DNA from: Candidatus Iainarchaeum sp.
GTDB lineage: Archaea; Iainarchaeota; Iainarchaeia; Iainarchaeales; JAXPJC01
DNA: 64,000 bases
Reading direction: 5' to 3'
NCBI GenBank assembly: GCA_016187745.1
Contig: JACPJC010000005.1
Span: forward strand, 1 to 64,000
A program made the translations under genes and the position numbers. This document shows positions 11,266 to 60,396 of the stretch, one piece after another; the stretch's first letter is position 1; each line of letters begins with the position of its first letter. The notes beneath the pieces were generated by a model that worked only from the letters and a program-made list of their open reading frames with translations, made no database searches and was not told the DNA's origin.

Positions 11266-11453
11266 TGCGTCCGGTGGGATTCGAACCCACGTATGGAGCT
11301 AACCCCATAACTACAAACTTCCCTGAAAGAGCGGAAGTTATAAAAAATCGGCAATGAAATTATTTAACTTATATTCATTCCGCCGATTTTTTACAGAAAC
11401 TAAGGGTTTCTGATTATGGAGGGCTCCAGTCCTAACCACTAGACCACGGACGC
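11266..11453 (-). tRNA. tRNA-Gly(TCC) with 116-nt intron at 37/38 (intron 11301-11416)
   Basis: Acceptor GCGTCCG/CGGACGC-A, anticodon stem GGAGC/GCTCC, T arm GTGGG-TTCGAAT-CCCAC; relaxed BHB (CCTC pairs with GGGG, bulge TT|A). Confidence 0.92.
11341..11393. mobile_element. 53-bp MITE-like element with 12-bp terminal inverted repeats, nested in the tRNA-Gly intron
   Basis: TAAAAAATCGGC...GCCGATTTTTTA; absent from the homologous family A copy at 38263-38312. Confidence 0.55.
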
Positions 11454-11510
11454 CTCCTGAAATAATTATTTCAGAAAGCTTTTTATACTACTTTGCTTAT
11501 TGTTTAGGAC

Positions 11511-12458
11511 ATGGGCTGGGCGATTGAAAGCGCAATTGAAGTGTTCAAAAAGAGCCTTGACTACAAGAAGCTCTGGTTCTCCTATTTCCTTTTGCTTATA
11601 ATTTCACTCATTATCGGCGGAATAATACTGATAGCAGTAGTGGGCGTTCCAGCGGCAATGCTCTTCTCAAAATACCTTGTGCTGTATTCGCAGTATGCTT
11701 CTGCAACAGGCTCTTCGGAACTGGCTGCCATGGGAATAATCTTCGCATTGCTGCAGGCCCTGCCGCAGATTTTAACTGCGCTTGTTATAGTTGCAGTAGC
11801 ATATTTTGTAATTAATGCGCTCTGGGATGCATTCCTTTCAGGGCTGCAATTGAATATCGCGCTTGATTACCTCAAAAAGGCGAAATTCTCAATTGGAAGC
11901 GCCTCAGCAAAGACCAAGCCAAGATTCCTCACTTTGTTTGCCCTAAGCATAATATTTGGCATCCTGATTTTCCTTCTTGCATTGGTATTGTTCCTGCCAT
12001 TGCTGTTCTCGGCGCTGGGGATTATGAACCAGATTTCAACAGGGGCAGCTTCAGGGGCTTTGGCATCGCCGGGCGCTGACCTCTGGGTTAACATACTGCT
12101 TCAGACAGTATTTGCAATATTTGCATTTGTTGTTGTGATGCTCCTTGCAGCCCCTTTCCTTGCAATGATTGCGCCCGTTGCATTGTTTGAGAAGCGCGGC
12201 ATCGGCGCATCAATAGGGAGAATGATAGCGCTCGGCAAAAAGGACTATTTATCAACATTGGGCTATCTTATCCTTGTCGGGCTGCTCATGGCAGTTGTTT
12301 CCTGGGTAATCGGCTTCCTGCAGGCAGCGCTAGCGCTTATTCCTTTTGCAGGCATTGTGTTTTATATTGTTATAAGCGCAGTGCTCGGCACATGGTCCAT
12401 GGCATTCATAAGCCTAGCGCTCGCAAAGCTCTACCAGGTAAAAGCCCCAATGAAATAG
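11511..12458 (+). CDS. Polytopic membrane protein of unknown function
   Basis: About six hydrophobic helices; ALFEKRGIGASIGR pattern typical of GDPD-membrane-domain-like proteins. Confidence 0.75.
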   Translation: MGWAIESAIEVFKKSLDYKKLWFSYFLLLIISLIIGGIILIAVVGVPAAMLFSKYLVLYSQYASATGSSELAAMGIIFALLQALPQILTALVIVAVAYFVINALWDAFLSGLQLNIALDYLKKAKFSIGSASAKTKPRFLTLFALSIIFGILIFLLALVLFLPLLFSALGIMNQISTGAASGALASPGADLWVNILLQTVFAIFAFVVVMLLAAPFLAMIAPVALFEKRGIGASIGRMIALGKKDYLSTLGYLILVGLLMAVVSWVIGFLQAALALIPFAGIVFYIVISAVLGTWSMAFISLALAKLYQVKAPMK

Positions 12459-12490
12459 TTTTATTAACTTCGCATTTCTAATTCTCCCAT

Positions 12491-13147
12491 ATGCCAGGAA
12501 AAATAATTGCAATTGAGGGCGCTGACGCTTCAGGCAAATCAACGCAGTCAAAAATCCTTTCAGCGCGCCTGAAGAGGATTGGAAAAAATGCAGCAGTGAT
12601 TTCCTTCCCGCGCCACAATGAGTTTTTCGGCTCGCTTGTTGAAAGGCATCTGCGCGGGAAATTCGGCAATCCGCACGAACTTCCAGCGGAATTCTGCGCA
12701 CTGCTCTATTCCGTTGACCGCTACAATATGCTGAATGAAATAAAATCTGCGCTGAAGGAAGGCAAAATCCTCATAATGGACCGCTACATACAGTCAAACT
12801 TCGCCTTCCAGACAGCAAAATTCACAAATCCTGCGGAGCAGGACTCCTTCCTACAGTGGATGCAGATTGTGGAAAGCAGGATGCCGAAAGCCGATGCTGT
12901 AATATTCCTTGAAATGCCGGCTGAATTTTCCCAGAGGCTCCTGAAAAGGGAAAAAAAGAAAGCGGATTTGCATGAATCGAACCTAGCGTACCAGAAGCGC
13001 GTACTTGCAATTTATGAAAGGCTGGCGCGCTCCGGGAACTGGCTGCAGATAAAATGCGCGCTCAGGCAGCAGAATGGCAGATGGAAACTAAAATCAAGGA
13101 AGCAGGTTGCAGAGGAAATCTGGAACGGGATAAGGAAGAAAATTTGA
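12491..13147 (+). CDS. tmk: Thymidylate kinase
   Basis: IEGADASGKSTQ, LLYSVDR, MDRY, DLHE. Confidence 0.95.
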   Translation: MPGKIIAIEGADASGKSTQSKILSARLKRIGKNAAVISFPRHNEFFGSLVERHLRGKFGNPHELPAEFCALLYSVDRYNMLNEIKSALKEGKILIMDRYIQSNFAFQTAKFTNPAEQDSFLQWMQIVESRMPKADAVIFLEMPAEFSQRLLKREKKKADLHESNLAYQKRVLAIYERLARSGNWLQIKCALRQQNGRWKLKSRKQVAEEIWNGIRKKI

Positions 13148-13879
13148 CTATTTGACAGACGGCCTTCCGCTTGGCAATCTAAGTTTTCTATTTATTGCTT
13201 TTGAAACCCCATTTTGTGAAGATGTCTTAACTTGCTTGACTTCAACGCCTTCCTTTGCAAGCCTGTTAACAACTTCTGCCAGGATTCTTTTTGCTGTTGT
13301 TGTCTTATCTACCCTGAAAGTCCTTGCAATCCAACTTAAAGAATAAATCTGACGCGGGTATCTCCTTATGTGTGCCTCCAGAGCAGCACGAGCCCCTTCA
13401 AGCCTCAATTTTTCAAGCTTGCTTTTTGAGGGTCTTATTTTGTGTTTATCAATAACAATTCTTTCCACGGTTTGACGCGATACTCCAAATTTTTTTGCGA
13501 TTTCAGTTGGCGTTAGGCTAAGGTTGTTCCTGGCAAAAGACAAAATCCTTTTTTGTGCGTCCTCACTGATAGCTGCAAAGCGCCCATATGGCATTCTGGA
13601 TTTTTTTTTATCATTTGCAAGGGTTCTTTTGAATGAAAAGTCCCTCTGTTTTTCAAATTTTTCCAACAAACGCTCTGCAGAGTGCCATCCTATATTAAGG
13701 TCTTTCGCCATTTTGTTTGCAGAAACAGCAAGCCCCTTTTCAGCGGCATTCATTACATAATTAAGGGCTCTGGCGTGGGCATCCATCCAGCGGCTTGCTG
13801 CAATTTCCCTTCGTTTCTCTATCATTGGGCGCATACCTTTAGGATAGCTCCCAATTGGTTTCGGCTTTCTTGTGCGCAT
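13148..13879 (-). CDS. Basic multi-HTH orphan protein
   Basis: Three HTH-like segments (SANKMAKDLNIGWHSAERLL, TPTEIAKKFGVSRQTVERI, SLSWIARTFRVD). Confidence 0.7.
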   Translation of the reverse strand: MRTRKPKPIGSYPKGMRPMIEKRREIAASRWMDAHARALNYVMNAAEKGLAVSANKMAKDLNIGWHSAERLLEKFEKQRDFSFKRTLANDKKKSRMPYGRFAAISEDAQKRILSFARNNLSLTPTEIAKKFGVSRQTVERIVIDKHKIRPSKSKLEKLRLEGARAALEAHIRRYPRQIYSLSWIARTFRVDKTTTAKRILAEVVNRLAKEGVEVKQVKTSSQNGVSKAINRKLRLPSGRPSVK

Positions 13880-13882
13880 AAA

Positions 13883-14025
13883 TGCGACCGCCGGGATTCG
13901 GACCCGGGTCCTAACCTATTTGCTATGAAGATTATTTTATCTTTGGATAACCCTTAGACTTTCTCTTTTTCTAAAAGAGAAAGGCTTGGTGGCAAGGTCA
14001 GATCCTACCACTAGACTACAGTCGC
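13883..14025 (-). tRNA. tRNA-Gly(GCC) with 72-nt intron at 37/38 (intron 13918-13989)
   Basis: Acceptor GCGACTG/CGGTCGC-A, anticodon loop TT-GCC-A; BHB central helix TTGC/GCAA, bulge AT|A. T loop reads TCCGAAT. Confidence 0.92.
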
Positions 14026-14054
14026 TTATAGTAGAATTAAATATGGGAGCCTTT

Positions 14055-15767
14055 TTATCTTTTGCGCAAAAGCAGGATTGCAAGCGCAATGGCAATTATT
14101 GCAAGAACAGCGATTGCCGCAATAAGCACCAGATCGATATTCCCCGGAACTGCGGGAATGCCCCCCGCGCCTTCCCCCTGCCCCGCGCCTGCTGCATTTC
14201 CCTCTCCCCCTGTTCCTTCAGGCTTTTCTGTCCGCTTCTCCTCAAGGATTTCAATGTTCTGCAGATGCGCAATCCCCGGCCCGGAAATATCCACTTTCAT
14301 CGCCCCGTAATTCCAGTCCGCAAAAGAGTATGAAAGCGTTTTCTGCGTGTTTGAAGGAATCTGCTCAGCCGCGCTTCCTGAAATTCCAACACCGCTGATG
14401 TTTATGTCAGCGATTCCGTCCTGCATTCCGGAATTCTTCAGGATTACCTTTATTGTGAGCTTCCCATCCGAAATTTCAGGCACTATTGCGACCAGTTTTA
14501 TGTTTGCAGAATCTGAAACTTCCCCCCCGGCAGCATAAACTGAAACATTCCCCTCAATCTCCTGGTCAAAGCCCCTTATCGCATATCCGTAAATGTAATT
14601 CAATCCCGCAGTATCTGGCGCATCTGCATTCCAGGAAAGCGTTTTCCGCTCCGCTGGATTCAGCAGAACAAGCCTTTCCGCGCTTTCATAAACAAACTGC
14701 TCATGCAGCCTCATTTCAATCGGCGCAATGAATTTTCCATCAGTAAGGTTTGCAACTTCAAGATTGAAATCAAAGTTCTGCCGGCCCTTCAAATCCCCCG
14801 GGAACATCACATTCAGGCCCGTGTATTTCGAGAATTTGCTGAAATCATTCACAATCACATCCTCGCCCCTGTCAATTTTGACGCTTATGCCCTGCGTTGT
14901 CGTTATGGAATCAACGGCCTGGCTCTGGTCAAGCAGCTTTGCAAGCACCAAATGCGTCCCATCAACAAATCCCGCCTCAAGGTAAGTGGCGTCAAGCGCA
15001 ATCCACCCCGCTCCGGGAACAAAGAATTCCAGCCATGCGTGCGTATCCCATTTCTTTCCGCTGTAAACATATCCTACGATGTATCTTGTGGGAATCCCTC
15101 GCGCGCGGAGCAGCGCAGCTGTCAGGTTTGAGAACTCATCGCATGTTCCCTTCCTTACATCCAGGACTTCCTTTGCCGAGAGGACAGTCGTGAAATAATC
15201 CAAATCATAGGTTATGTATCCGTGCGCAAATTCCGCGGCCTTTATCGCATTTTCAAGAACTGAATTTGAGTTCAGGGTAGAAAACGCAAGGCTCCTTATC
15301 CCTGAATCATTTGACTGTATGTATGTGCTCTCCTGCAGGAATTGGGCTTCCTCATCTATCGGAGCGCCCAAATCATAGTCCTTCAGGTCAAAAACCTTGG
15401 AATTCGTCCTTATGCGCGCATTTATCGTGTATTTGAAATCCGCGCTTTCAATATTGCCTATTTTGAATATCGCATATTTATTCCCAAGCCCATCAGTTTC
15501 ATGCGTTGCATTTATCGCCCTGCTCCCAATCTGCAGCGCCTCACTAATCCCAAGCACCTCCTGGGCTTCATTGCTGGAAAACGTCTGCAGCTTTATCTCA
15601 ATCGTATCCCCCGCGCCTATGCTTCCGGAAATTGCCCCATCCCCAACAATAATTACATTAACATCCGCGCTCTGCACCCTTACAGGATTCCCCATCTCAA
15701 GCGCATATGCGTTTGAAAGAATAATTGCGGAAATAGCCAAAATAAAAAAATTTCTGATTGCGCTCAT
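14055..15767 (-). CDS. Secreted, membrane-anchored transglutaminase-like protein
   Basis: Signal peptide, GTCDEFS...HAW...LDAT Cys-His-Asp triad, Ig-like domains, C-terminal TM followed by RKR. Confidence 0.9.
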   Translation of the reverse strand: MSAIRNFFILAISAIILSNAYALEMGNPVRVQSADVNVIIVGDGAISGSIGAGDTIEIKLQTFSSNEAQEVLGISEALQIGSRAINATHETDGLGNKYAIFKIGNIESADFKYTINARIRTNSKVFDLKDYDLGAPIDEEAQFLQESTYIQSNDSGIRSLAFSTLNSNSVLENAIKAAEFAHGYITYDLDYFTTVLSAKEVLDVRKGTCDEFSNLTAALLRARGIPTRYIVGYVYSGKKWDTHAWLEFFVPGAGWIALDATYLEAGFVDGTHLVLAKLLDQSQAVDSITTTQGISVKIDRGEDVIVNDFSKFSKYTGLNVMFPGDLKGRQNFDFNLEVANLTDGKFIAPIEMRLHEQFVYESAERLVLLNPAERKTLSWNADAPDTAGLNYIYGYAIRGFDQEIEGNVSVYAAGGEVSDSANIKLVAIVPEISDGKLTIKVILKNSGMQDGIADINISGVGISGSAAEQIPSNTQKTLSYSFADWNYGAMKVDISGPGIAHLQNIEILEEKRTEKPEGTGGEGNAAGAGQGEGAGGIPAVPGNIDLVLIAAIAVLAIIAIALAILLLRKR

Positions 15768-16300
15768 TTTCCCGCCTTTTTCCTCTCAATTGCTATCCCA
15801 TTTTTTGCAATTTTTTCAGCATCCCTGACTTTAGAGTTCAGAATTTCCACTTCCTTATCACTCAACTCAATTTTATCCATGAATCTTAATAACCTTTCCC
15901 GCGAATGGGAGGCTTCCCTTTCGGCTATTTCAAGCTTCTTTGCAAAAAAGTCCATATTCTCAAAATCCCTGACCATGTTGATCGGGGAGTTATGTATTTC
16001 AAGCATACGAAATTTATTCTCAAGATAGATTTTGTTTGCCAGAAGGCGCTCCAATTCCCTCGTTTGTTTTGGATTGAGCAATTTGAAATTGCTTCTCCTG
16101 ACGGCCTCATTTGCAATGACCTTTGCAAAAACCCCATATCTAAATACATTGATGCCAAAATCAGCCTTTGTGGATTTTTCCCCCCTATAAATTGCGGGAA
16201 TTCTCCTTGCAGTTTCTCTCCATATCCTTATTGCAGCACCAGGAGTAAGTTTTCCGCGCCTCAAGCGGTAAAACGGGCGCTTTGAAGATTTTGGAGCCAT
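15764..16300 (-). CDS. Basic orphan protein downstream of tRNA-Val (MAPKSSKRPFYRLRR...)
   Basis: Start trimmed to ATG 16300 because the longer ORF overlaps the tRNA; stop overlaps the next start (ATGA). Confidence 0.65.
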   Translation of the reverse strand: MAPKSSKRPFYRLRRGKLTPGAAIRIWRETARRIPAIYRGEKSTKADFGINVFRYGVFAKVIANEAVRRSNFKLLNPKQTRELERLLANKIYLENKFRMLEIHNSPINMVRDFENMDFFAKKLEIAEREASHSRERLLRFMDKIELSDKEVEILNSKVRDAEKIAKNGIAIERKKAGK

Positions 16301-16316
16301 TGTTTCTTCCTGGAAT

Positions 16317-16467
16317 TGGGCCCGGGCGGGATCGAACCGCCGACCTTCGGCTTGTTTACAATTTCCCAAGGGATTAATTTTCTTTTGAACCCCAGGGCCT
16401 TTTCTTTTTTATAAAAAGAAAAGGGGCTGCTGTAAAGCCGACGTCATAGCCGCTAGACGACGAGCCC
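16317..16467 (-). tRNA. tRNA-Val(TAC) with 78-nt intron at 37/38 (intron 16353-16430)
   Basis: Acceptor GGGCTCG/CGGGCCC-A, anticodon stem TCGGC/GCCGA; BHB helix TTTA/TAAA, bulge CA|A. Confidence 0.93.
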
Positions 16468-16601
16468 TTTTTCCGTATTAATGAGCTGATGCAAAATATA
16501 TTTAAACAGAGCAAGCAAAGATTCCCGGAACCCATGCGAAACGCTTATAAATAACCTCAGCATAATTTAATCATTTGCAGGAAAATAAAAGAGGTGCCGA
16601 T

Positions 16602-17003: not shown

Positions 17004-17009
17004 ATTTTA

Positions 17010-18356
17010 CTAGAACGTCAGGAGCTTTATTCCTGAAGTTCCGGCTATTTTTCCCTTTCTTATTCCCACAATGTATTTGCAGGAATGCTTTGCGCTCTCG
17101 TCTAAAAGCCTCTTTGTTATGATTCCATCGAACACTATCGCATGCACGTTCCCTGAGCTTGCAAGCCCCTCAACAAGCCCCTTCACATCCATTGAGGCGA
17201 TTTCCTTCATATCCTCATTGTAGAGCTTTGCCTGCAGGCTTCCTTTTAAGCTTTGCAGCAATGGCTCGAATTTTGCCTTTTCATCAATGCTTGCAATTGC
17301 AGGCCTTTCCTCGGCTGGAAATCCCATTCCTTCGCGCCTCGGATAACCAAAATCCCTTCCCCTCGGGGGAAAGCGCCTTTCACTAAAGTCCCGCCCTCCG
17401 CCTGATGAGAATCTGCCCGGGCCCCTTGAAAATCTCGGCCTGTCCCTTGAGAATTCCCTTCTTTCGCTGAACTCGCTTCTGGGCCTTTCTGAATGCCTGT
17501 AAGTTCCCTCAGGGCTCTGCGCAAATTGCTTCGGCTCGGAATAAACCTCATTCGCGGGCTTCTTGTTGCGGAGCGCTGCCAGAATTTCCTTTCTTGCGAG
17601 CTCCTCAACTTCCTTTCCGTCAGGCGCCTTTGCAATGTATTTTACGCTTGCTACCTGCACCAGCTTCCTTGCGTTCAGCTCCCCGCCCCTGTCCCCATCA
17701 ATGAAGAGGGTTATTTCCTTGCGCCTGCTCAGTTCGATTATTTCCTCAGCTATTTTAGCGCCGCCCATCCCTATTACATTCGCTATGTGGTTCCTCAGGA
17801 GGTTTATCACATCCGCGCGCCCCTCAACCACAATTATTTCCTTCTCGGATTCGATGTCAGGCCCCGCAGGAAGCTTCTCCCTCCCGTATTCCTGGATTTC
17901 AGCAATCCTCGCGTCTTCCTTTAGCTCCGTCGCAAGCTCTTTCGCTTCCGGCAGCTGCCCCGAAAGCTGCTTCAGTATTTCCTTTGCCCTTTCTGTAAGG
18001 ATTTTGCGCTTGTCCTCGCGCACATCCTCAATCCTTGTTGTTTTGAATTTCGCCTCGCACGGCCCTACCTTGTCAACTGTTTCTACCGCAGCAGCAAGCA
18101 GGCTTGTTGAGGCAGTGTCAGTGCTGCTTGGAATCAGAACTTCCCCCTTTGTCACTCCGAGCTTTGATTCCAGATTAACCTCAATCCTTCCGAGCTTCCC
18201 CGCATCCTGCAGCTCCTTAAGGTCCATTTCCTCCCCGAGAAGGCCCTCACACTGGCCGAAAATCGCGCCAATGATGTCGTGCTTTTCCACTACTCCCTTT
18301 ATCTCAAACTCCACATGTATAATGTATTTTGCAACATCAACATAAGTTTTAGCCAT
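17010..18356 (-). CDS. dnaG: Archaeal DnaG (exosome-associated TOPRIM protein)
   Basis: DIIGAIFGQCEGLLG, VVEGRADV, DGDRGG, FDGIITKRL. Confidence 0.96.
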   Translation of the reverse strand: MAKTYVDVAKYIIHVEFEIKGVVEKHDIIGAIFGQCEGLLGEEMDLKELQDAGKLGRIEVNLESKLGVTKGEVLIPSSTDTASTSLLAAAVETVDKVGPCEAKFKTTRIEDVREDKRKILTERAKEILKQLSGQLPEAKELATELKEDARIAEIQEYGREKLPAGPDIESEKEIIVVEGRADVINLLRNHIANVIGMGGAKIAEEIIELSRRKEITLFIDGDRGGELNARKLVQVASVKYIAKAPDGKEVEELARKEILAALRNKKPANEVYSEPKQFAQSPEGTYRHSERPRSEFSERREFSRDRPRFSRGPGRFSSGGGRDFSERRFPPRGRDFGYPRREGMGFPAEERPAIASIDEKAKFEPLLQSLKGSLQAKLYNEDMKEIASMDVKGLVEGLASSGNVHAIVFDGIITKRLLDESAKHSCKYIVGIRKGKIAGTSGIKLLTF

Positions 18357-18373
18357 AATATCTCATCTCCATT

Positions 18374-18401
18374 ATCAGAAACTGCGTTTCCGATACTTTC
18401 C
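18374..18401 (+). repeat. Repeat family A copy (ATCAGAAACTGCGTTTCCGATACTTTCC)
   Basis: Matches the start of the tRNA-Gly(TCC) intron and copies at 35586, 38312(-) and 60353. Confidence 0.7.
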
Positions 18402-18435
18402 TTTTTTACAATTAGGGTGCATTATTAATGCAAAT

Positions 18436-18705: not shown

Positions 18706-18789
18706 TAAAAATCAAATTACATCCTAATTTACTAATTTCTGTTCCAAAGGGCTTTTAAAGGATTGTTTTATTAGTATTTTGGGGTTGCT

Positions 18790-19194: not shown

Positions 19195-19230
19195 ATATTA
19201 TATATACAGGAACACCTTATTTATTTTAAA

Positions 19231-25640: not shown

Positions 25641-25642
25641 AA

Positions 25643-27456: not shown

Positions 27457-27604
27457 CCCGAATTCCCCTTATTCTCTTTTTATCAAAAAAAGACATAAAA
27501 TTAACGCACTCAGCAAATAAAAACCTTTGCGTTTCATTTGAAATTCAGCGGAAATGTGCCCTCAAAATCATTATAAAGGGTTTTTCCCAAATCTTATGTA
27601 TAAA

Positions 27605-27654
27605 AGCCCCTTTTCTTTTTGAAAAAGAAAAGGCCCTTGGGTTCAAAAGAAAAA
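27605..27654 (+). repeat. Repeat family B copy (AGCCCCTTTTCTTTTTGAAAAAGAAAAGGCCCTTGGGTTCAAAAGAAAAA)
   Basis: Almost identical to the tRNA-Val intron core (16428-16377, minus strand). Confidence 0.85.
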
Positions 27655-27710
27655 CTGCCTTTTCCTATTGAAAATGGAAAGCCCGGGAAAAAGAAAAAAG
27701 GTTTCAGAAA

Positions 27711-28823
27711 ATGAGCAAAAATCTCAATGAGGTGATTGGCGAGGCTGTTGCAAGCATAAAGGGCACAGAGCAGAAGCGCAGGCTGTTTGCTGAAAAGCTT
27801 CTGGCCCTGAAAAATAAAAACCTTCACGAATTTGAAAGCAAGGAACTTATTGAGCGGAATCTTATTTTTCCATTGGAAATGCGCAAGCTAAACTGCACTG
27901 TTGCCGGAGTGGATTCCGGATTCCTCATGAAAAGCCTGCATGCCGCTGATATGCTCATACTGCGCACATGCGCCGCAATCTTCACATACGCCGGGAGCAA
28001 CCTCTCAAACGCGCAGTATTACCCCAACCTCTACTCCTTCCCGATTCCAGAATTGAACACAAAGGCCCTTGAGCGCGATGAGCTTTCCTGCAGCAAATCC
28101 CTGAAGCGCCTTTACGAGGAGGTAAAAATGGCAAAGGAGGTAATTGAAAGATTCTCCCCGCATTTCATGCTTATTGACGGCAGCATTATCCCCCAATACG
28201 CGGACAAGCCGCGCCCTGACTCCTGCGTGATTGACAATTACAAGGGGATAATAAACGAATTCCAGTCGCTTTACAAGGTTTCTGAAAAGCACAGCTGCGA
28301 GCTCATAGCGTGCGTAAAGGATTCCAGGGGCTCAAGGTTCAGGAGCATAATTCAGGAGGAAATACTCACAAATGAAAGGCTGATTGAGGCAGCAATGCTT
28401 GATGAGTGCTTTGACTCAAACCTCCTTGACTATCTCCTGAAAAAGGGCGAGCGCTCATTCGCATTTTCCTATACCAAAAGCATTTCCGAGCATCCTGTGC
28501 TGCATGATTTCTCCGAGGAATACGCGAAAAAAATATTCGCGTTTTACATGAAGCCGAGCGCGCTTGACCGCCCCCTAAGGGTAGAATTCCTGCACTCAAA
28601 TGGCGCGGATTTGACAAAGCACACGGACGAGATTGCGGGCGCGGTTTATGCGTTAAGTTCCCTGCACAGGGAGTTCGCCTATCCTTCGGTCCTTATAGAG
28701 GCGGACTTGCGCGCGCGCCTCAGGCCCGAGGAGGTTGAAACGGTTTACAACAAGATAATTGACAAGCTGGGAAGGAACTCCGCATTCATGGCGCTAAGGA
28801 GAAATTCAAGGCCATTTAAATAG
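27711..28823 (+). CDS. nurA: DNA double-strand break repair nuclease NurA
   Basis: VAGVDSG, LIDGSI, YPSVLIEAD; upstream of herA. Confidence 0.92.
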   Translation: MSKNLNEVIGEAVASIKGTEQKRRLFAEKLLALKNKNLHEFESKELIERNLIFPLEMRKLNCTVAGVDSGFLMKSLHAADMLILRTCAAIFTYAGSNLSNAQYYPNLYSFPIPELNTKALERDELSCSKSLKRLYEEVKMAKEVIERFSPHFMLIDGSIIPQYADKPRPDSCVIDNYKGIINEFQSLYKVSEKHSCELIACVKDSRGSRFRSIIQEEILTNERLIEAAMLDECFDSNLLDYLLKKGERSFAFSYTKSISEHPVLHDFSEEYAKKIFAFYMKPSALDRPLRVEFLHSNGADLTKHTDEIAGAVYALSSLHREFAYPSVLIEADLRARLRPEEVETVYNKIIDKLGRNSAFMALRRNSRPFK

Positions 28824-29440: not shown

Positions 29441-30996
29441 AGTGGATTAAAATGCAGCAGGGCGATCTGGGAACGGTAATTTCAACGCTTGAGGGCCCTT
29501 CCCCCGGAAATGTTGATTTTGTAGTTAATATTCCTGAAATGGTCCTGCACAGGGGGCAGTTTGTTGAGATGTCCTATTCCGAGGGAACGCTCATCGCAAT
29601 GATTGTGGATTTGCTAAAAACAAACCGCTATTTCGAGCGCGCTGATTCTGTGAAGGAATTCGAGGCTTCCGGAAAAAAAATGCTCGATGTTTTCCCAACC
29701 GCAGAATGGGAATATCTCATTGCAAGGACAAAACCGCTCGGGGTTTTCAGCCCTGATGGGAAAGTAAAGCGCGCAACCTCCCCAATAAGCCCCGGCACGA
29801 AAGTAAGGCTTGCGGGGAATGAGAAGCTGCATAAATTTTTGGGATTTGATTCTGAGAGCGGCCTGCACATTGGAAATGTAGAATTCCATGACCTTCCGGT
29901 AAGCCTGAATCTCTCGAAATTGTTCCAGAAGCACCTTGCAATTCTGGCAATGAGCGGCGCGGGAAAGTCGTACCTGGTTTCAGTCCTCATAGAAGAACTG
30001 CTCAAAAGGAAAAAGGAATCCGGAAGGCCCGCGGCGCTTATTTTCGATGTCCATGGCGAATACACAAATTTCGGGGAGGCAATAACAGATTCAAAGCACG
30101 AGGATTATTCCAACAAGACAAAAGTTGTAAAGGCGCGCGACATAAGGATAGGGGTTCCGAAGCTCTCAGCTGCAATCCTCAATTCAATAATCCCTGATCT
30201 GAGCTCAGCGCAAGTGAGGGATGTCGCAAGAATCATAGAGCAGTTGCGCAGGAACATGCAGGCAACAGGCCCGTTTGATTTCAGGGACGTGAGGAATGCA
30301 ATTTCCGCTGATTCGGAAATAAAGGACAGCACAAAGGCTGCTCTAATAGGCTGGCTTTCAGGCCTGGAATACCTGAACCTGTTCGCAAGGACTGACGCGC
30401 CAAGCATAACTGATTTGATTGCGCCCGGGGAACTTACAGTAATTGATTTTTCGGATATTGTGAACCAGCGCAAGAAGCAGATAATTGTGAGCTATTTCCT
30501 GCGCAGGCTCTTTGATTCCAGGAGAAGCAAGCGCATCCCGCCATTTGTTGCTGTAATTGAGGAGGCGCACCAGTTCGCCCCCGCAATGGCAAAAGAGGAA
30601 AGCGCAGTCTCAAAGGGGATAATTGAAACAATTGCGCGCGAGGGAAGAAAGTTTGGGGCAAGCGTCTGCTTAATTTCCCAAAGGCCGAAAAGGCTCAGCA
30701 CAACAGCGCTTAGCCAGGCAAATACGCACATCATACTGCGCATCACAAATCCCTATGACCTGAAGCACATTGGTGAAAGTTCCGAGGGATTGGACCAGCG
30801 CAGCCAGGACATGATTTCCTCGCAGAGAGTAGGAGAAGCGCTAATTGTGGGAGAGGCAACAAATTACCCTGTTTTTGTGAAAATAAGGGAGCGCAAATCC
30901 CTCGAATCAAGCCATGAGGTTCCTCTCGAAAAGGCAGCGCTTGATTTTGAGGCGCGCAAGGAAAAAGCAGGCGAGGAAACCGAGGAGTTTTTATAA
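29437..30996 (+). CDS. herA: HerA helicase/ATPase
   Basis: HAS barrel, HLAILAMSGAGKS, IEEAHQF, REGRKFG, SQRP. Confidence 0.95.
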   Translation: MKWIKMQQGDLGTVISTLEGPSPGNVDFVVNIPEMVLHRGQFVEMSYSEGTLIAMIVDLLKTNRYFERADSVKEFEASGKKMLDVFPTAEWEYLIARTKPLGVFSPDGKVKRATSPISPGTKVRLAGNEKLHKFLGFDSESGLHIGNVEFHDLPVSLNLSKLFQKHLAILAMSGAGKSYLVSVLIEELLKRKKESGRPAALIFDVHGEYTNFGEAITDSKHEDYSNKTKVVKARDIRIGVPKLSAAILNSIIPDLSSAQVRDVARIIEQLRRNMQATGPFDFRDVRNAISADSEIKDSTKAALIGWLSGLEYLNLFARTDAPSITDLIAPGELTVIDFSDIVNQRKKQIIVSYFLRRLFDSRRSKRIPPFVAVIEEAHQFAPAMAKEESAVSKGIIETIAREGRKFGASVCLISQRPKRLSTTALSQANTHIILRITNPYDLKHIGESSEGLDQRSQDMISSQRVGEALIVGEATNYPVFVKIRERKSLESSHEVPLEKAALDFEARKEKAGEETEEFL

Positions 30997-31624: not shown

Positions 31625-32632
31625 CTACTCAGCAAGCCTTTTCTTCAGATATGCGATTTTTGGCACCGGCTCGGGGTCTTTTCCATTCAGCAGCGCCAGA
31701 TAGCAGGAAGCCAGCTCATCAATGAAAATCACATAATACATCCTTGCAAGAAGCGAATTTCCCTTTGCAAAAATCTCAATCTGTTTGCCGTAATCCTTCA
31801 GGACGTCTTTTGTTATTTCAAATCTCTTCGCAATTTTCGCATCTTCGTTCCCGGAGCGCAGGAAAACAAAAGCAGTATTTTCAGGAAAAATCTCAGAGTT
31901 GATTTCATTGTGGTTCATTTCAGGAATTTCCTGGAAATGCGCAAGCGTCTTGCTGTTCTCATTAAGCTCGCAAACCCACCTGTATGCTGCAGAATCCATT
32001 TCATCGCCTGCATAAATTATTGGGAATTTTCCCTTAAGTTCGGCTGCAGCATCCCTTGCAATTTCATCAATTTCATTTCTGCTTTCTTCCAGCAATGAAA
32101 GCATCTCATTGTAGCTGTTCTCCTGATTTTTAATCAAGCCAAGTTTTTCGAATATTGGGATCATTGGAAGCGTAAGGAAAGGAACTGCCATGCGGGGCTG
32201 CGGCGCATCCCTTGGAAGGGCAATTCTATATTTTCCCAAGTCTTTCAACTTTCCGCCAGAAGCAAGCCCAACAACTAGGCAGTTTCTCTTCAGCGCCTCT
32301 TCCATGCATGCGAGTGTTTCCTCAGTATTCCCGGAATAGCTTACAGCAAAAACAAGCGTGTTCTCATCTGCATATTTCGGCAGGGAATAGCTGTGATAAG
32401 CCTCTATTGGAATAGCGAGTTCAGTTTTCAACAAGTTTTTCAATATGTGCCCACCGATTCCGCTTCCGCCCATTCCGCTTACAATAATGTTGCTGATTTT
32501 CCTGCCATCATTAATTTCAAGCCTTCTGCCAAGCTCCAATGCATTTCTGCATTGCTCCGGAAATGTCTTAAGAAAGCCAAGCGCATTGCTCTTGTCAAGC
32601 TCTTCGGCAAGTTTTGAAAAATCAGGCCCCAT
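31625..32632 (-). CDS. Bifunctional phosphoglucose/phosphomannose isomerase
   Basis: GMGGSG, SYSGNTEET, QPR, ENSK, PEMNHNE. Confidence 0.95.
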   Translation of the reverse strand: MGPDFSKLAEELDKSNALGFLKTFPEQCRNALELGRRLEINDGRKISNIIVSGMGGSGIGGHILKNLLKTELAIPIEAYHSYSLPKYADENTLVFAVSYSGNTEETLACMEEALKRNCLVVGLASGGKLKDLGKYRIALPRDAPQPRMAVPFLTLPMIPIFEKLGLIKNQENSYNEMLSLLEESRNEIDEIARDAAAELKGKFPIIYAGDEMDSAAYRWVCELNENSKTLAHFQEIPEMNHNEINSEIFPENTAFVFLRSGNEDAKIAKRFEITKDVLKDYGKQIEIFAKGNSLLARMYYVIFIDELASCYLALLNGKDPEPVPKIAYLKKRLAE

Positions 32633-35390: not shown

Positions 35391-35585
35391 ATGGGAAAGG
35401 CAGTTCCAAAAAACCTGAAATCGCGCGCGTCCATACTGATTAAGGAATTCCCCGACAAATTCACAATAGATTTTGACAAGAACAAGCAGTTCCTCAATTC
35501 ACTGCAGCTTCCATTCACAAACGAAGTAAGGAATCTCATTGCGGGTTACATAACAAGAAAGGTCAAGCAGAAGCACGCTTCATAA
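35391..35585 (+). CDS. rps17e: 30S ribosomal protein S17e
   Basis: FTIDFDKNK, RNLIAGYITR. Confidence 0.96.
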   Translation: MGKAVPKNLKSRASILIKEFPDKFTIDFDKNKQFLNSLQLPFTNEVRNLIAGYITRKVKQKHAS

Positions 35586-35627
35586 ATCAGAAACCTTAGG
35601 TTTCCTCAAACTTCCTCTCTTCCAAAA
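35586..35627 (+). repeat. Repeat family A copy between convergent rps17e and rad50
   Basis: ATCAGAAACCTTAGGTTTCCTCAAACTTCCTCTCTTCC. Confidence 0.7.
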
Positions 35628-38179: not shown

Positions 38180-38262
38180 TGCATTCATACATTGCACCAA
38201 ATCCGTATTTTATAAAGGCTTAAATAATCAGATATAGTAATATTCCATATAAGCAAAGATTA

Positions 38263-38312
38263 AAAACCCTCCTGAAAAAGCGGAAGGTATCGGAAACGAA
38301 GGGTTTCTGATT
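38263..38312 (-). repeat. Repeat family A copy immediately upstream of tRNA-Arg
   Basis: AATCAGAAACCCTTCGTTTCCGATACCTTCCGCTTTTTCAGGAGGGTTTT matches both flanks of the nested hairpin in the tRNA-Gly(TCC) intron. Confidence 0.82.
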
Positions 38313-38315
38313 GCA

Positions 38316-38387
38316 GGACCCATCGGCTAATGGACAGGCCAGACGGCTTCGGACCGTCCAATGGGGGTTCGATTCCCTCTGGGTCCA
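38316..38387 (+). tRNA. tRNA-Arg(TCG), intron-less
   Basis: GGACCCA/TGGGTCC acceptor, GACGG-CT-TCG-GA-CCGTC anticodon arm, GGGGG-TTCGATT-CCCTC T arm. Confidence 0.95.
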
Positions 38388-38396
38388 ACCACCAAT

Positions 38397-38448
38397 CCCT
38401 TTTCTTTTAGGAAAAGAAAAGGTCTAGGTTTTACCCCAAAAGAAAAAT
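38397..38448 (+). repeat. Repeat family B copy immediately downstream of tRNA-Arg
   Basis: CCCTTTTCTTTTAGGAAAAGAAAAGGTCTAGGTTTTACCCCAAAAGAAAAAT. Confidence 0.8.
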
Positions 38449-38475
38449 AGGTTTCAAGTTGCCAAAAAGAAAATG

Positions 38476-39789
38476 CTATATGAATTTGTTTTTCCTTAAC
38501 AGGCCTTCCAGATTTGGCTTTCCTAATTCCTCCAATTCGTAGCTAACTTCGATTGCAGGCTTATTGAGTTTCAGTATTCTTGCAAGATTCACAGGCGTTG
38601 CATCCACAACATAATCGCACGGGGTCCTGTTTATTGTTGATTCCAGCTCAGCAACCTGCTTTTTTCCATAGCCGAGCGCAGGCAACACATTGCGCAGATG
38701 CTTCCATTTTTTCAATTCCTTCCTTAATGAGCCGACAGCATACTTATGCGGAGCAATGATTATTGCCTTGTGCTTTTTTGCAACAATAATGCCTGCGCCA
38801 TAAGCCATGTTCCCATGTGTAAGCGTAGGGCCATCCTCAACAACCAGGACCTTTTTATTATGCATTTTCCAGGCAAGCGGAGAAATCAATTCCGAATTTG
38901 CCTTTACAATCCTTGCATTTGGATTCACAAGCCTCGCATTTTCAATTATCTCTTTTATTGCCTTTTTCTTTGCGGTATTCATCTTGTTTATTACAATCAC
39001 ATCAGCCATCCTGAAGTTTGTTTCTCCGGGATGATAAAGCAGCTCGTGCCCCGCCCTGTGCGGATCGGTAACAACAATCAGCAAATCCGGTTTTATGAAT
39101 GGGAAATCATTATTGCCTCCATCCCAAATTATTACTTCAGCTTCCTTTTCAGCAGCACGCAGGATTTTTTCATAATCCACTCCTGCATAAACTATTGCGC
39201 CCCTTTCAATCAAGGGTTCATACTCCTCCATTTCCTCAATTGTGCACTTTTGCCTTTTCAAATCATCAATACGCTCAAACCTCTGGCATCCCTGCAGCAG
39301 CAAATTCCCATAAGGCATTGGATGCCTTATCACAACCGCTTTCTTTCTGTGTGTTTTCAGAATATCAAGGATTCTCCTTGTGGTCTGGCTCTTTCCCGAG
39401 CCTGTGCGGACTGCACATACAGCAATTACTTTCTTCGTTGATTCCAGCATTGTTTCCTTTGGCCCAAGAAGTGAAAAGCCCGCTCCGCAGGCAAGCACGA
39501 TGCTCGCCTTGTGCATGACCTCTTCATGGCTTACATCAGAATAAGCAAATACAACTTCATGCGCATTGAATTTCTTAATCAATTTTGGCAGTTCTGCTTC
39601 AGGATAGATAGGAAGCCCTTTTTTGTACAATCTGCCGGCAAGTTCTGCAGGATATTTGCGATTTGTAATTTCTGGAATCTGAGTTGCAGTAAAACAAACA
39701 ACATTATAATTCGGATTATTTCTAAATGCTATATTGAAATTGTGGAAATCCCTTCCAGCAGCGCCCATTATTATTACGTTTCTGCGCAT
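38476..39789 (-). CDS. cDPG-synthetase-like P-loop protein, ArcE (arginine synthetase)-type
   Basis: IMGAAGRDFHNFN, RTGSGKSQT, RHPMPYG, WDGGNND, EDGPTLTHG. Confidence 0.85.
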   Translation of the reverse strand: MRRNVIIMGAAGRDFHNFNIAFRNNPNYNVVCFTATQIPEITNRKYPAELAGRLYKKGLPIYPEAELPKLIKKFNAHEVVFAYSDVSHEEVMHKASIVLACGAGFSLLGPKETMLESTKKVIAVCAVRTGSGKSQTTRRILDILKTHRKKAVVIRHPMPYGNLLLQGCQRFERIDDLKRQKCTIEEMEEYEPLIERGAIVYAGVDYEKILRAAEKEAEVIIWDGGNNDFPFIKPDLLIVVTDPHRAGHELLYHPGETNFRMADVIVINKMNTAKKKAIKEIIENARLVNPNARIVKANSELISPLAWKMHNKKVLVVEDGPTLTHGNMAYGAGIIVAKKHKAIIIAPHKYAVGSLRKELKKWKHLRNVLPALGYGKKQVAELESTINRTPCDYVVDATPVNLARILKLNKPAIEVSYELEELGKPNLEGLLRKNKFI

Positions 39790-50151: not shown

Positions 50152-50160
50152 ATGAAAAAT

Positions 50161-50526: not shown

Positions 50527-50564
50527 ATAATAACCTCATTTCCGAGCAAGTTTTAAACCAAACG

Positions 50565-52317: not shown

Positions 52318-52332
52318 GCCAATAACTATAAT

Positions 52333-53908: not shown

Positions 53909-54011
53909 ATGAAATTAGCGCATGGAAAGGGTTATAAGTATATTCGTCAATCGCCGATAAATATAAAAACCTTTTTAAATAGAATATACCTATAGATTAA
54001 GAGGTGAAAAG

Positions 54012-54380: not shown

Positions 54381-54399
54381 TGGCATACCTGATGCAATT

Positions 54400-55527: not shown

Positions 55528-55534
55528 TTTTTCA

Positions 55535-55684
55535 CTAGGCCTTTAGGTTTCCCTTCCACTCTTTTGCCATTTCCCTGTGAATTGCCTTTTTGCCCTGCTC
55601 AACCAGCCTTTGCTGCTGCTCCCTCAATTTCACATTGCGCTTCGCTTCGGCAATGAATTCCCTTACCGCTTCCTTTGCATCCAT
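55535..55684 (-). CDS. Small hypothetical protein (49 aa, MDAKEAVREF...)
   Basis: Manual translation; exactly fills the gap between thrS and the peptidase. Confidence 0.55.
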   Translation of the reverse strand: MDAKEAVREFIAEAKRNVKLREQQQRLVEQGKKAIHREMAKEWKGNLKA

Positions 55685-55691
55685 GTTCTCA

Positions 55692-57596: not shown

Positions 57597-57643
57597 TCCG
57601 CAGCACCACAAATATGATAAAGCCAAATATTTAATATATTATC

Positions 57644-58885: not shown

Positions 58886-58899
58886 CATTTTCTCTTAAT

Positions 58900-59868
58900 T
58901 CATTTCCCCGCATACTTCATGAACTGCGCGAGCAGCGCTTCCAGCTGTATCCTTTCATTTGCGCCCTCAACAATCCTGAAATTGTACTCGCCAATAATGT
59001 CAATCAGCTCAATCTTCGTTTTGCTGTCAATCTCGGTTTCAGGCATGTCAATCAGCTCCCTGTACAACTGCACAATAATGTCCTCCCCGCTCATCCCGTG
59101 CTCATAAAGCAGCGCATCAAGCTTCTGCCGCGCCTCCAGAAATTCATGTTTTAGAATGAGCTTTATCATTTCCTGGATTTCAACAGGCTTTGCGCGCGAT
59201 GCGACATTGTATATTGTGTCCTCATCAATTTTTTTGCCCAGGGAAGCTCCGGCCTGCAGTATGTTAACAGCTTTCCTCAAATCCCCCTCGCTCACGTAAA
59301 TCATCGCCTTTACCGCCTTTTCATCCATCTGCAATGATTCCTTCCCCGCAATATCCTGCAGCTTCTCCTCTATGTGCCTTGAACTCAATGGCTTGAAGCG
59401 GAACAAAACGCATCTGCTCTGCAATGGCTCAATAATGCGCGAAGAGTAATTGCATGAAAGGACAAACCTGCAGGTCTTTGTATAGCGCTCCATTGTCCTT
59501 CTCAGGGCCTGCTGCGCATCCGCTGTTAATGCATCAGACTCATCCAGAAAAATTATCTTGAATTCTGTATTGAAAGCAAGGGTGCGCGCAAAATCCTTTA
59601 TTGTAGAGCGCACAACATCTATTCCCCTCTCATCCGATGCATTCAATTCCAGGAAATTCCTCCCGGTTTCATTCCCATACAATTCCCTTGAAAGGGCAAC
59701 CGCCGCGCTTGTCTTTCCGGTTCCCGCAGGCCCTGAAAACATCAGATTCGGCATGTTCCTGTTTCTCACATATGCCTCCAGGCGCTTAACTATCTCATCG
59801 TGCCCTATTATGTCATTGAGCCTCTGCGGCCTGTATTTTTCCACCCATGGAAGATTGTCAGCAATCAT
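58900..59868 (-). CDS. rfcS: Replication factor C small subunit
   Basis: WVEKYRP, GTGKT, ELNASDERG, LDESD, QSRC. Confidence 0.97.
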   Translation of the reverse strand: MIADNLPWVEKYRPQRLNDIIGHDEIVKRLEAYVRNRNMPNLMFSGPAGTGKTSAAVALSRELYGNETGRNFLELNASDERGIDVVRSTIKDFARTLAFNTEFKIIFLDESDALTADAQQALRRTMERYTKTCRFVLSCNYSSRIIEPLQSRCVLFRFKPLSSRHIEEKLQDIAGKESLQMDEKAVKAMIYVSEGDLRKAVNILQAGASLGKKIDEDTIYNVASRAKPVEIQEMIKLILKHEFLEARQKLDALLYEHGMSGEDIIVQLYRELIDMPETEIDSKTKIELIDIIGEYNFRIVEGANERIQLEALLAQFMKYAGK

Positions 59869-59929
59869 GAAGCATCAAAATAATTAGCGTAGGGAACACT
59901 TTTAAAGTGTTTGCAGAACTATTTGTAAT

Positions 59930-60349
59930 ATGAATTTCAACTATGCCGCAAAGTTGATAGTACTCTTCATTTTCTTCTATGCTGTCCTTTTTGCCGTTTC
60001 AAATCTCATCAATCTCGGGCTGACCGCCTGGTCAAACAACCCGATGTTCTGGCTCATGCCCTTTGTGGGCTTCTTTTTCGTGTTCATTGCGATTGACTAC
60101 ATTGACAGGTATCTTGGAATAAAATTCGCAAACACGGTTTTCTTCCCGCTTGCCTTCATAATTGCGTGCTTCATCTCCTACTGGGTAGCGCTTTACATAT
60201 ATTTCGGCAATACCGCCCAGCTTTCAGGGCAGACGGCAGTTGTGTTTGACTTCTGGGAGAAGCTCAGGGCGAGCGCCTTTTTGCTGTTTGTTTTCTCGGG
60301 GCTTTTCGGCTGGCTCTCAAAAATCGCAATGGACAGAATAGGCAAATAA
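59930..60349 (+). CDS. Four-TM membrane protein
   Basis: Hydrophobic helices throughout. Confidence 0.7.
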   Translation: MNFNYAAKLIVLFIFFYAVLFAVSNLINLGLTAWSNNPMFWLMPFVGFFFVFIAIDYIDRYLGIKFANTVFFPLAFIIACFISYWVALYIYFGNTAQLSGQTAVVFDFWEKLRASAFLLFVFSGLFGWLSKIAMDRIGK

Positions 60350-60352
60350 TGC

Positions 60353-60396
60353 ATCAGAAACTGCGTTTCCCCAGGCTTCCTCATTTTCAGGAGAAA
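60353..60396 (+). repeat. Repeat family A copy, filling the intergenic gap before the MiaB-family gene
   Basis: ATCAGAAACTGCGTTTCCCCAGGCTTCCTCATTTTCAGGAGAAA. Confidence 0.72.

Follow-up and report, generated by a model that had tools for sequence, protein, structure and literature searches.

The window analyzed here spans the initial 64 kb of contig C1 in a Candidatus Iainarchaeum genome. It contains three interrupted tRNA genes, tRNA-Gly(TCC), tRNA-Gly(GCC), and tRNA-Val(TAC), whose long introns are built from members of two short repeat families, designated A and B, that are also dispersed elsewhere in the genome. The assembly comprises 964 kb in 10 contigs, is 91% complete, and is archaeal in character: its rRNAs are archaeal, and both RNase P RNA and a splicing endonuclease for tRNAs are present. 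The endonuclease is encoded by a 174-aa open frame on contig C8 and was recognized by a single PF01974 match (E 6e-25).

Interrupted tRNA genes and their introns

In each of the three genes the intron lies after position 37, as an initial annotation of the window had proposed, and the joined exons form a complete cloverleaf. Exons were read from the sequence. ARAGORN anticodon labels are unreliable for interrupted tRNAs, and all three of the window's genes were mislabelled. Across the genome, ARAGORN in intron mode reports 46 tRNA candidates and calls an intron in 26 of them, and the Rfam tRNA model yields 37 matches, 33 of which exceed the cut-off. In minimum free energy (MFE) folds of the interrupted tRNAs, the anticodon stem is formed, the intron tail is paired with the anticodon loop, and a 3-nt bulge contains the 3′ splice site.

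The initial annotation had also claimed that the introns belong to dispersed families with members outside introns. Both families proved to be real: every position it named was recovered by profile search, and further copies stand beside tRNAs, 16S rRNA, and open reading frames (ORFs). With nhmmer at E ≤ 1e-3, the genome holds 20 copies of A and 27 of B, compared with 0 matches to either profile when the genome was reversed or when it was shuffled in 60-nt blocks. A pattern search for A gave 15 matches in the genome versus 0 with the backwards control pattern. When nhmmer was run on the window, the four B copies found there (13927–13989, 16369–16429, 27607–27655, and 38392–38455) scored E 6e-11 to 3e-15. 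Neither family is matched by Rfam 15, in which tRNA is the sole model reaching its gathering score in the 64-kb window, and nothing meaningful matches A or B at E ≤ 10 over positions 38230–38480. Covariance models were built for B (R1) and A (R2), and samples of either 41 or 151 genomes were used for the order as a whole. Features of the window, together with copies of a third repeat family elsewhere in the genome, are listed in Table 1.

Table 1. Interrupted tRNA genes, repeat copies, and associated features. Positions refer to the window unless a contig is given; rc(A) is the reverse complement of A.
Feature	Position	Strand	Description
tRNA-Gly(TCC)	11266..11453	-	Exon 1 11417-11453, intron 11301-11416 (116 nt), exon 2 11266-11300; from sequence, fold, and ARAGORN
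Distal piece of split rc(A)	11321..11341	-	ATAACTTCCGCTCTTTCAGGG, read on the tRNA strand
Hairpin element D	11342..11392	-	AAAAATCGGC...GCCGATTTTT; nested within the A copy of the Gly(TCC) intron
rc(A) hairpin in Gly(TCC) intron	11393..11414	-	ATCAGAAAC-CCTTA-GTTTCTG; begins 3 nt past the 5′ splice site
tRNA-Gly(GCC)	13883..14025	-	Intron 13918-13989 (72 nt)
B1 cassette, sense, Gly(GCC) intron	13927..13989	-	CCAAGCC-TTTCTCTTTT-ag-AAAAAGAGAAAG-linker-AAAGATAAAA; begins at the 5′ splice site; nhmmer E 4.7e-14; R1 78.5 bits
tRNA-Val(TAC)	16317..16467	-	Intron 16353-16430 (78 nt)
B2 cassette, sense, Val intron	16369..16430	-	Begins at the 5′ splice site; nhmmer E 2.6e-12; R1 58.3 bits
A, sense	18373..18413	-	Followed after 17 nt by the start of a Toprim (DnaG-like) gene (17010-18356); nhmmer E 2.5e-12
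Free B2 copy	27601..27662	+	56 nt upstream of a NurA-domain gene (27711-28823); degenerate second unit behind
A	35585..35623	-	Plus-strand rc(A) from 35586, immediately past the S17e stop codon (gene 35391-35585); nhmmer E 0.0017
A, sense	38270..38314	+	Hairpin end 4 nt before tRNA-Arg(TCG); nhmmer E 1.8e-13
tRNA-Arg(TCG), intron-less	38316..38387	+	
B1 cassette, sense	38390..38455	+	Begins a few nt past the 3′ end of tRNA-Arg; R1 84.6 bits
A	60352..60391	-	Plus-strand rc(A) 3 nt past a stop codon and ~7 nt before the next ATG; nhmmer E 7e-6
Third repeat family	C4 29995-30070		Upstream of 23S
Third repeat family	C5 59050-59128		Upstream of a tRNA
Third repeat family	C5 160650-160680 and 170523-170560		Beside A copies
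Third repeat family	C1 163354-163430		
Third repeat family	C5 53050-53123		
Third repeat family	C6 15017-15090		

Assignment of A to the Gly(TCC) intron was upheld, although the copy is not continuous as first described. It is detected by nhmmer as two weak halves (11396–11416, E 0.019; 11320–11341, E 0.087) because a 53-nt hairpin, element D, is nested inside it. Element D has two clear copies in the genome plus one dubious pattern match. The second copy (contig C1, 220844–220889) is nested at the same position inside another A copy, so A and D were copied together as a unit. The Val and Gly(GCC) introns, initially taken as one type, are both of family B but of different subtypes.

Two further observations concern the genes themselves. 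Position 33 in the anticodon loop of tRNA-Gly(TCC) is C rather than the near-universal U, and the corresponding exon in a relative (locus L228) is identical. Past each interrupted tRNA, the ATG of a same-strand protein gene lies within 3 to 20 nt (10765–11262, 13148–13879, and ~15764–16297, all on the minus strand), which suggests that tRNAs and mRNAs are co-transcribed in this genome.

Replacement of intron cassettes among relatives

A protein search with the 570-aa gene located between the tRNAs retrieved three syntenic metagenome loci (L227, L228, and L229) with 81–86% amino acid identity, and the genes shared by these loci are 81–88% identical at the nucleotide level. In alignments with these relatives, the exons of the three tRNAs are identical and the introns are non-homologous. 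For example, the 116-nt Gly(TCC) intron of the window consists of rc(A) plus D, whereas its counterpart in L228 is a 45-nt compact B (R1 E 0.004), and the A model R2 finds no A anywhere in the 17.3 kb of the three loci. The Gly(GCC) intron holds B1 in the window versus B2 in all three relatives, and the Val intron holds B2 in the window versus B1 in L229 (R1 85 bits). Thus the orthologous loci are polymorphic rather than fixed, and fixation was an outcome that the initial annotation had named as fatal to its proposal.

The exchanged sequences can be matched across genes. The Gly(GCC) intron of the window is 92.3% identical to a relative's Val intron over 65 nt, and identity between the Val intron of the window and the Gly(GCC) intron of the relatives is 94.1% over 51 nt. 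From these alignments, it looks like the Val and Gly(GCC) cassettes were swapped between genes located 2.4 kb apart. The replaced block starts exactly at the 5′ splice site, and in the Val gene it ends ~14 nt before the 3′ splice site, such that a gene-specific tail is kept.

Introns of this genome also resemble copies that lie outside introns. The tRNA-Ser(GGA) intron agrees at 55 of 57 positions with copies in the 3′ flanks of tRNA-Leu and tRNA-Ala, the Val intron agrees at 50 of 55 with a copy flanking tRNA-Pro, and the intron copies of B nest within the flank subfamilies. On a wider scale, the intron slot of tRNA-Gln(TTG) varies across families, holding a B type in this genome and in locus L101 and rc(A) in L114 and L118. 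Signs of proliferation include a genome-specific A subfamily, tandem copies, and the nested element D. As judged from sequence, these lineage-specific subfamilies, tandem copies, and nested insertion point to a copy-and-paste mode of spread. Taken together, there are two conserved, structured, and polar repeat families, tRNA introns made of them, and replacement of whole cassettes between close relatives.

Structure and placement of the repeat families

The consensus of B is CCAATCC - CTTTTCTTTT - loop - AAAAGAAAAGG - TCTAGGTTTTACCCC - AAAAGAAAAA - TAGGTTTCA. In layout, a CCAAKCC start is followed by a pyrimidine arm, a loop, a purine arm, a linker, a third purine tract that mirrors the purine arm, and a tail; the linker and ends are conserved in the alignment of copies. 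Three subtypes are distinguished. B1 has a long linker, B2 is recognized by the start GCAGCCCC and the linker CCCTGGGGTT, and a third subtype has the linker TGTTAGGT.

Two features of the fold are maintained among copies. In an alignment of 51 distinct copies from relatives, which was fitted to the model, 99.6% of the cells of the hairpin are paired (69–81% in slid controls), and 9 of its 11 pairs change on both sides, a result matched by 0 of 500 shuffles. In addition, the third tract is a mirror of the purine arm, and hence a parallel complement of the pyrimidine arm, rather than a direct repeat. Examples include T3CT6 with A3GA6, T5CT3CT3 with A5GA3GA3, and T4CT5CT3 with A4GA5GA3. Among 47 distinct asymmetric cases from this genome and its relatives, the mirror fits better in 32, 13 are ties, and 2 are contrary, apparently where the parser picked the wrong tract. 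When third tracts were re-dealt among the copies, the observed mirror score was reached in 0 of 2000 permutations.

A homopurine/homopyrimidine hairpin with a third strand mirroring the purine strand is what triplex formation requires of a sequence. Since templated copying yields inverted or direct repeats and not mirrors, the simplest reading is that the mirror tract is selected for a predicted triple helix. This would take the purine.purine-pyrimidine form on the sense strand and the pyrimidine.purine-pyrimidine form on the antisense strand.

The placement of B is strongly biased towards RNA genes. Of the 27 copies in this genome, 6 are inside tRNA introns, 10 lie ≤5 nt from a tRNA 3′ end, 2 are the second member of a tandem pair behind a tRNA, 1 is behind the 3′ end of 16S, and 1 is 16 nt before tRNA-Glu. 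All 20 of these copies are in the sense orientation, and RNA genes occupy 9.6 kb of the 964 kb (1%). The other 7 are away from any RNA gene, and 3 of them begin on or right behind a stop codon. The R1 model adds weaker, B-like introns in tRNA-Ala(TGC) and tRNA-Pro, and compact versions, judged by eye, occur in tRNA-Gln(TTG) and tRNA-Cys. The rRNA operon reads A, 16S, B, tRNA-Ala with its B-like intron, B, a third leader element, and 23S with a classical processing stem. Downstream of B, a same-strand gene starts within 0–60 nt in 12 of the 27 cases, and a convergent gene ends there in just 3. In tRNAs that lack B, the corresponding spot behind the gene is mostly a plain T-run, which fits the first arm of B acting as a terminator. 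Within the order, B is found in 23 of 41 sampled genomes, in which it occurs behind tRNAs (e.g., tRNA-Ile(TAT), as in this genome) and within tRNA-Ser and tRNA-Gln introns.

Two candidate uses of B were rejected. For Gly(GCC) and Val, B cannot be a terminator-plus-promoter that splits the tRNA halves into separate transcription units, because its third tract ends 13 and 20 nt before exon 2, leaving no room for a TATA box if the anticodon-pairing tail is kept. A MALAT1-like use of antisense B by convergent genes is not general, given the 3 copies with a convergent gene downstream.

The sense sequence of A in this genome is (CCTGAAAaAGC) GGAAGG T ATCGGAAAC-loop-GTTTCTGAT. Its layout is a purine head, GGRRGG-T, followed by a 9-bp hairpin, ATCGGAAMC-loop-GKTTCTGAT, with a conserved G.U pair and a loop of 3 to 6 nt. 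Sense copies precede tRNA-Arg, tRNA-Cys, 16S, and about nine ORFs. The end of the hairpin lies 4 nt before the two tRNAs, 1–2 nt before 16S, and 6–49 nt before the starts of the genes for DnaG-like protein, Rrp4, Csl4, PolB, L3, S17, Spt4, and others. The same hairpin end abuts gene starts when in sense, and gene 3′ ends and 5′ exons when in antisense. The recurrences of A listed in the initial annotation were all found, but not in one orientation. Relative to the neighbouring gene, the copies at 18374 and upstream of tRNA-Arg run one way, and those at 35586, at 60353, and inside the Gly(TCC) intron run the other. The arrangement reported for the intron-less tRNA-Arg gene, with A directly upstream and B directly downstream, was borne out. 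About 15 copies form a genome-specific subfamily that has derived, compensating substitutions in common (GGAAAC/GTTTCT), and four copies of a more common form exist beside it.

That common form, (A)GGGAGG T ATCGGAACC-loop-GGTTCTGAT, is the one seen in relatives. Among genomes of the order, 9 of 41 carry the exact hairpin, and the covariance model finds A in 27 of 151. Sixteen of 36 sites examined in relatives abut an RNA boundary, always with the hairpin end proximal to the gene, and the other 20 are in other contexts. The 16 comprise six sense copies at tRNA 5′ ends, three antisense copies at tRNA 3′ ends, one antisense copy at the 16S 3′ end, and six antisense copies on 5′ exons within introns (Gly CCC, Gly GCC, Leu CAA, and Glu/Gln). 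Comparison of A sites within the same genus confirmed these contexts and gave no clean pair of filled and empty sites.

A species-level genome collection that reaches beyond the order contains exact A in 107 stretches. Their record titles include Iainarchaeum, Woesearchaeota, Nanoarchaeota, Aenigmatarchaeota, Altiarchaeota, Micrarchaeota, Parvarchaeota, and Undinarchaeota, with single records titled Bathyarchaeia, Methanosarcinales, and a bacterium. The exact pattern has no match in a viral contig collection. ARAGORN placed 84 A matches in 80 loci as follows: 7 at tRNA 5′ ends (sense), 6 at 3′ ends (antisense), 9 within introns (8 antisense and 1 sense), and 62 elsewhere, several of them beside tRNA fragments. 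Three loci with Woesearchaeota or Nanoarchaeota titles carry a T-loop intron of ~38 nt, consisting of rc(A) plus a short tail, in a long-arm tRNA (L137 at ~3480, L164 at ~3250, and L183 at ~5360). In three others, a complete tRNA is followed by 1–3 units, each made up of a spacer, A, GTGG, and the last 17 nt of the tRNA repeated from the T-loop onwards (L130 6700–6960, L163 7480–7680, and L178, minus strand, 440–560). The last unit in L163 bears the 3′ end of a different tRNA. Such arrays resemble either target duplications or spare 3′ pieces.

The common form of A also shows complementarity to 16S rRNA. Within the 5.1-kb rRNA operon, the best alignment of its reverse complement is to the last 28 nt of 16S (GAACCTGCGG-ACGGATCACCTCCTTTA versus GAACCTGCGGTTCCGAT-ACCTCCCTTA), with a score reached anywhere in the operon by 2 of 500 shuffles. 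The predicted duplex of common A with the 16S tail has an energy of -39.0 kcal/mol, compared with -16.8 +/- 3.4 kcal/mol for shuffled A, and was reached by 0 of 300 shuffles. In this genome's own subfamily the complementarity is mostly lost (-22.2 kcal/mol, reached by 58 of 300 shuffles). A relative, G001, has three tandem degenerate rc(A) units behind the 3′ end of 16S, each with a 16S-like end. The predicted pairing is a strong lead to a role for A, to which no function is assigned here.

Several other explanations of A were discarded. A classical promoter is ruled out by the variable distance to upstream AT-rich boxes, the 3–6 nt variation in the loop, and antisense copies after genes. The Shine-Dalgarno sequence of the downstream gene is ruled out since the hairpin end lies at the variable distances given above from starts that have their own purine boxes, and since A also precedes tRNAs and 16S. 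Loss of RNase P is ruled out as the reason for an A leader, as RNase P RNA is present at contig C4 25797–26042 and in 31 of 41 genomes of the order. No cis pair of A and rc(A) around 16S was found in this genome.

A few additional sequence features were observed. CCTGAAA, the head of A, and TTTCARG, the tail of B, are complementary in this genome, for instance at 38270–38285 with 38448–38462 and on C4 at 32050–32067 with 30455–30467. Around 16S, ~10 bp with one mismatch could form, and as the complementarity covers only 7 nt, it could be due to chance. A third repeat family of about seven copies has two hairpins (AGGAAGGGGTCAGGA..CCTCAAACTGGGGAAACC-loop-GGTTTCCCGCGGTTYGGTG) and sits, leader-like, ahead of 23S rRNA, one tRNA, and some ORFs. 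A GGTTTGGTCCCGAAAGC-TTTAAAAGC block that recurs in the genome (C5 175883–175920, C8 54870–54910, and C1 163320–163354) resembles a common promoter with a transcription factor B recognition element (BRE) and TATA box. In relatives G004 and G001, a small hairpin with GA...GA internal loops, e.g., GTTCGATCGAAC TTTG TGAAGATCGAAC, is located just upstream of many A copies (loci L035, L039–L042, L045, and L054). It resembles a kink-turn or K-loop and is a candidate protein-binding site.

Proposed mobility, punctuation, and origin of the introns

The reading considered probable is that tRNA introns in this genome are slots for gene-boundary cassettes, which are copied between loci and replace one another, and whose primary role is gene punctuation. 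A long intron is filled by a discrete, self-folding cassette of ~45–65 nt from one of the two genome-wide families. It consists of one "3′-boundary" cassette extending from the 5′ splice site plus a short, gene-specific tail, which is paired with the anticodon loop in the folds. Copying would occur between loci at the DNA level, with replacement on a short evolutionary scale. As punctuation, B may act as an oligo-T terminator or insulator with a hairpin and a triplex-competent fold, and A as a leader or trailer hairpin. Genome streamlining may have stripped every spare base, so that cassettes came to abut genes, and the intron slot would tolerate cassettes of any kind that are compact and self-folding, given their removal by the splicing endonuclease. 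Since no sequence is shared on the left side of the cassette, replacement is presumably a non-homologous cassette exchange and not the work of a resident transposase.

Several observations weigh against this reading. The MFE folds show the 3′-side bulge and a central helix, with no clean bulge at the 5′ splice site. With three relatives only, neither the direction of the Val/Gly(GCC) exchange nor its reciprocity is rooted. In different families, tRNA-Ser and tRNA-Gln carry B-type introns, and exact A is present across DPANN-titled records; with conservation this deep, selection and not copying could be what keeps the sequences similar. If B terminates transcription, the T4–T6 runs in at least six tRNA introns must be read through, which is the main problem for the terminator idea. 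Furthermore, inspection by eye of 26 aligned B copies and their flanks revealed neither terminal inverted repeats nor target duplications. The co-occurring HUH/Y1 transposase or reverse transcriptase that the initial annotation proposed to look for was not found: this 91%-complete assembly has no PF01797 match at E ≤ 1 and no PF00078 match at E ≤ 0.01. A and B are not the ends of TnpB-like elements either, as the flanks of the three TnpB-like genes contain neither. In the order, Y1 is present in 12 of 41 genomes (5 of 9 with A versus 7 of 32 without), a weak overlap.

The same results bear on another form of mobility, in which A and B are miniature elements, REP/RAYT-like (repetitive extragenic palindromes with REP-associated tyrosine transposases) or derived from IS200/IS605, and are moved by a Y1 (HUH) transposase acting on single-stranded DNA hairpins. 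Like REPs, family A combines an imperfect palindrome and a conserved 5′ head; Y1 is found in over half of the A-positive genomes; and the insertion points are single-stranded spots of the cloverleaf (the anticodon loop, the T-loop, and both ends). This account is nevertheless very improbable, considering that the present genome, the richest in A copies, has no Y1 match, that G004, with 14–18 copies of A, has none at E ≤ 0.001, that no A hairpin lies within 1.5 kb of the two Y1 genes examined, and that no conserved target tetranucleotide stands beside the element. REP/REPIN sequences with RAYT transposases and miniature inverted-repeat transposable elements (MITEs) are short, structured, non-coding intergenic repeats with genome-specific subfamilies and tandem or nested copies. 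A and B share all of these traits, but differ from both groups in that no RAYT/Y1 gene was found in the assembly, no terminal inverted repeats or target duplications were seen, and the elements are strictly oriented to gene boundaries and occupy tRNA introns. The initial idea of mobile elements that use tRNA introns and flanks as safe havens is insufficient alone in view of the repeats' strict polarity, covariation, and conservation in the order and in DPANN-titled records.

These last properties argue, from sequence comparison, that A and B are functional punctuation modules as well as proliferating repeats. They could also be host cis-elements without any mobility (leader, terminator or insulator, or processing signal) that are held by selection and are alike because one protein or RNA recognizes them all. 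Strict polarity and abutment at gene boundaries, the covariation maintaining the hairpin and mirror tract of B, the occurrence within the order (23 of 41 genomes for B, 27 of 151 for A), the 107 stretches with exact A in many DPANN-titled lineages, and the strong complementarity of common A to the 16S 3′ end are all in keeping with this. As a full explanation it is unlikely, since cassettes of another subtype or family replace each other in orthologous introns with identical exons, the ~15-copy A subfamily has derived substitutions that weaken the 16S complementarity, and the distribution across the order is patchy.

It is doubtful that A and rc(A) are complementary arms for RNA assembly, which pair to zip leader and trailer, or the pieces of a split tRNA, for the endonuclease, with introns as a by-product. 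The predicted A:rc(A) duplex has an energy of -62 kcal/mol, compared with -10 and -6.6 for the single hairpins, and the G.U pair of A and the A.C mismatch of rc(A) turn into perfect pairs in it. The T-loop introns made of rc(A) and the arrays of A with tRNA 3′ ends would also suit such a role. The split tRNAs of Nanoarchaeum equitans are described with complementary leader and trailer flanks (PMC4090602). Sequences behind the 5′ piece and before the 3′ piece can likewise pair and present a splice motif, although each pair there has its own complement, and a single A/rc(A) motif is shared here. By contrast with split tRNAs, the window's tRNAs are contiguous genes whose introns contain rc(A) or B only. 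No gene in this genome is flanked by A on one side and rc(A) on the other, most A copies precede protein genes, rc(A) introns occur without a sense A partner, and B is left unexplained by pairing. Chance resemblance of low-complexity sequence can practically be dismissed. While B consists of T/C and A/G runs and gives abundant weak matches (48 at E ≤ 0.1), the reversed and shuffled genomes gave no match at E ≤ 1e-3, its linker and ends are conserved, and 20 of its 27 copies are concentrated in or beside RNA genes, all in sense.

A bolder and rather unlikely form of the cassette reading is that a dedicated exchange system makes and renews tRNA introns, with a triplex-forming B and a 16S-antisense A written beside RNA processing sites by an undescribed mechanism. 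Writing would take place at both ends of the tRNA, in the anticodon loop, and in the T-loop. Candidates for the writer are a structure-specific recombinase, or the splicing endonuclease together with a ligase, acting on RNA and followed by RNA-templated repair. Shared A/rc(A) arms would then be a universal zipper for the assembly of interrupted or split tRNAs in DPANN archaea, and B would be the first natural example of three-stranded gene punctuation in archaea.

Parts of B recall known elements. Mirror repeats form H-DNA, and triple helices of U-rich and A-rich strands occur at the ends of MALAT1 and PAN RNAs. The sequence of B follows the same triplex rule, its third tract mirroring the purine arm; its sense RNA would combine a single U-rich strand with two that are A-rich, opposite to the MALAT1 arrangement. 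Intrinsic terminators of archaea are oligo-T tracts, and the first arm of B is a T4–T6 run at the spot where other tRNAs of this genome have a plain T-run. Unlike such terminators, B has two further co-varying segments and occurs inside introns that need read-through.

The closest precedent comes from the Thermoproteales, in which very similar introns in different tRNA genes led to the proposal of intron transposition, by a mechanism described as unknown (PMC4090602). Features in common with the present case are similar introns in different tRNA genes, implied movement at the DNA level, and sites able to form a bulge-helix-bulge. In contrast to the Thermoproteales, the intron sequences here are cassettes that also flank tRNA, rRNA, and protein genes, and replacement between close relatives is directly seen. 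The cassettes here also have defined folds, namely, for B, a hairpin whose purine arm is mirrored by a third tract and, for A, a hairpin that is antisense to the 3′ end of 16S, and the host is an archaeon of ~1 Mb and not a crenarchaeote. Nothing describing A or B was found in literature on tRNA introns, DPANN archaea, repeats, and split tRNAs, and motif letters in literature text gave unrelated primer matches only.

How archaeal tRNA introns arrive is an open question; the abstract of a preprint on Asgard tRNAs also leaves the route open (bioRxiv 10.64898/2026.10.13.758758). The locus described here offers a concrete and testable route for their renewal, in which intron bodies are cassettes that punctuate gene ends, and relatives show replacement with a sharp boundary at the 5′ splice site. 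It also adds two structured elements that are new to Rfam: a three-segment motif, widespread in the order, that follows the triplex rule, and a hairpin of many DPANN-titled records whose common form is antisense to the 3′ end of 16S. Either element could bear on transcription punctuation, RNA processing, or the origin of split genes in streamlined archaea.

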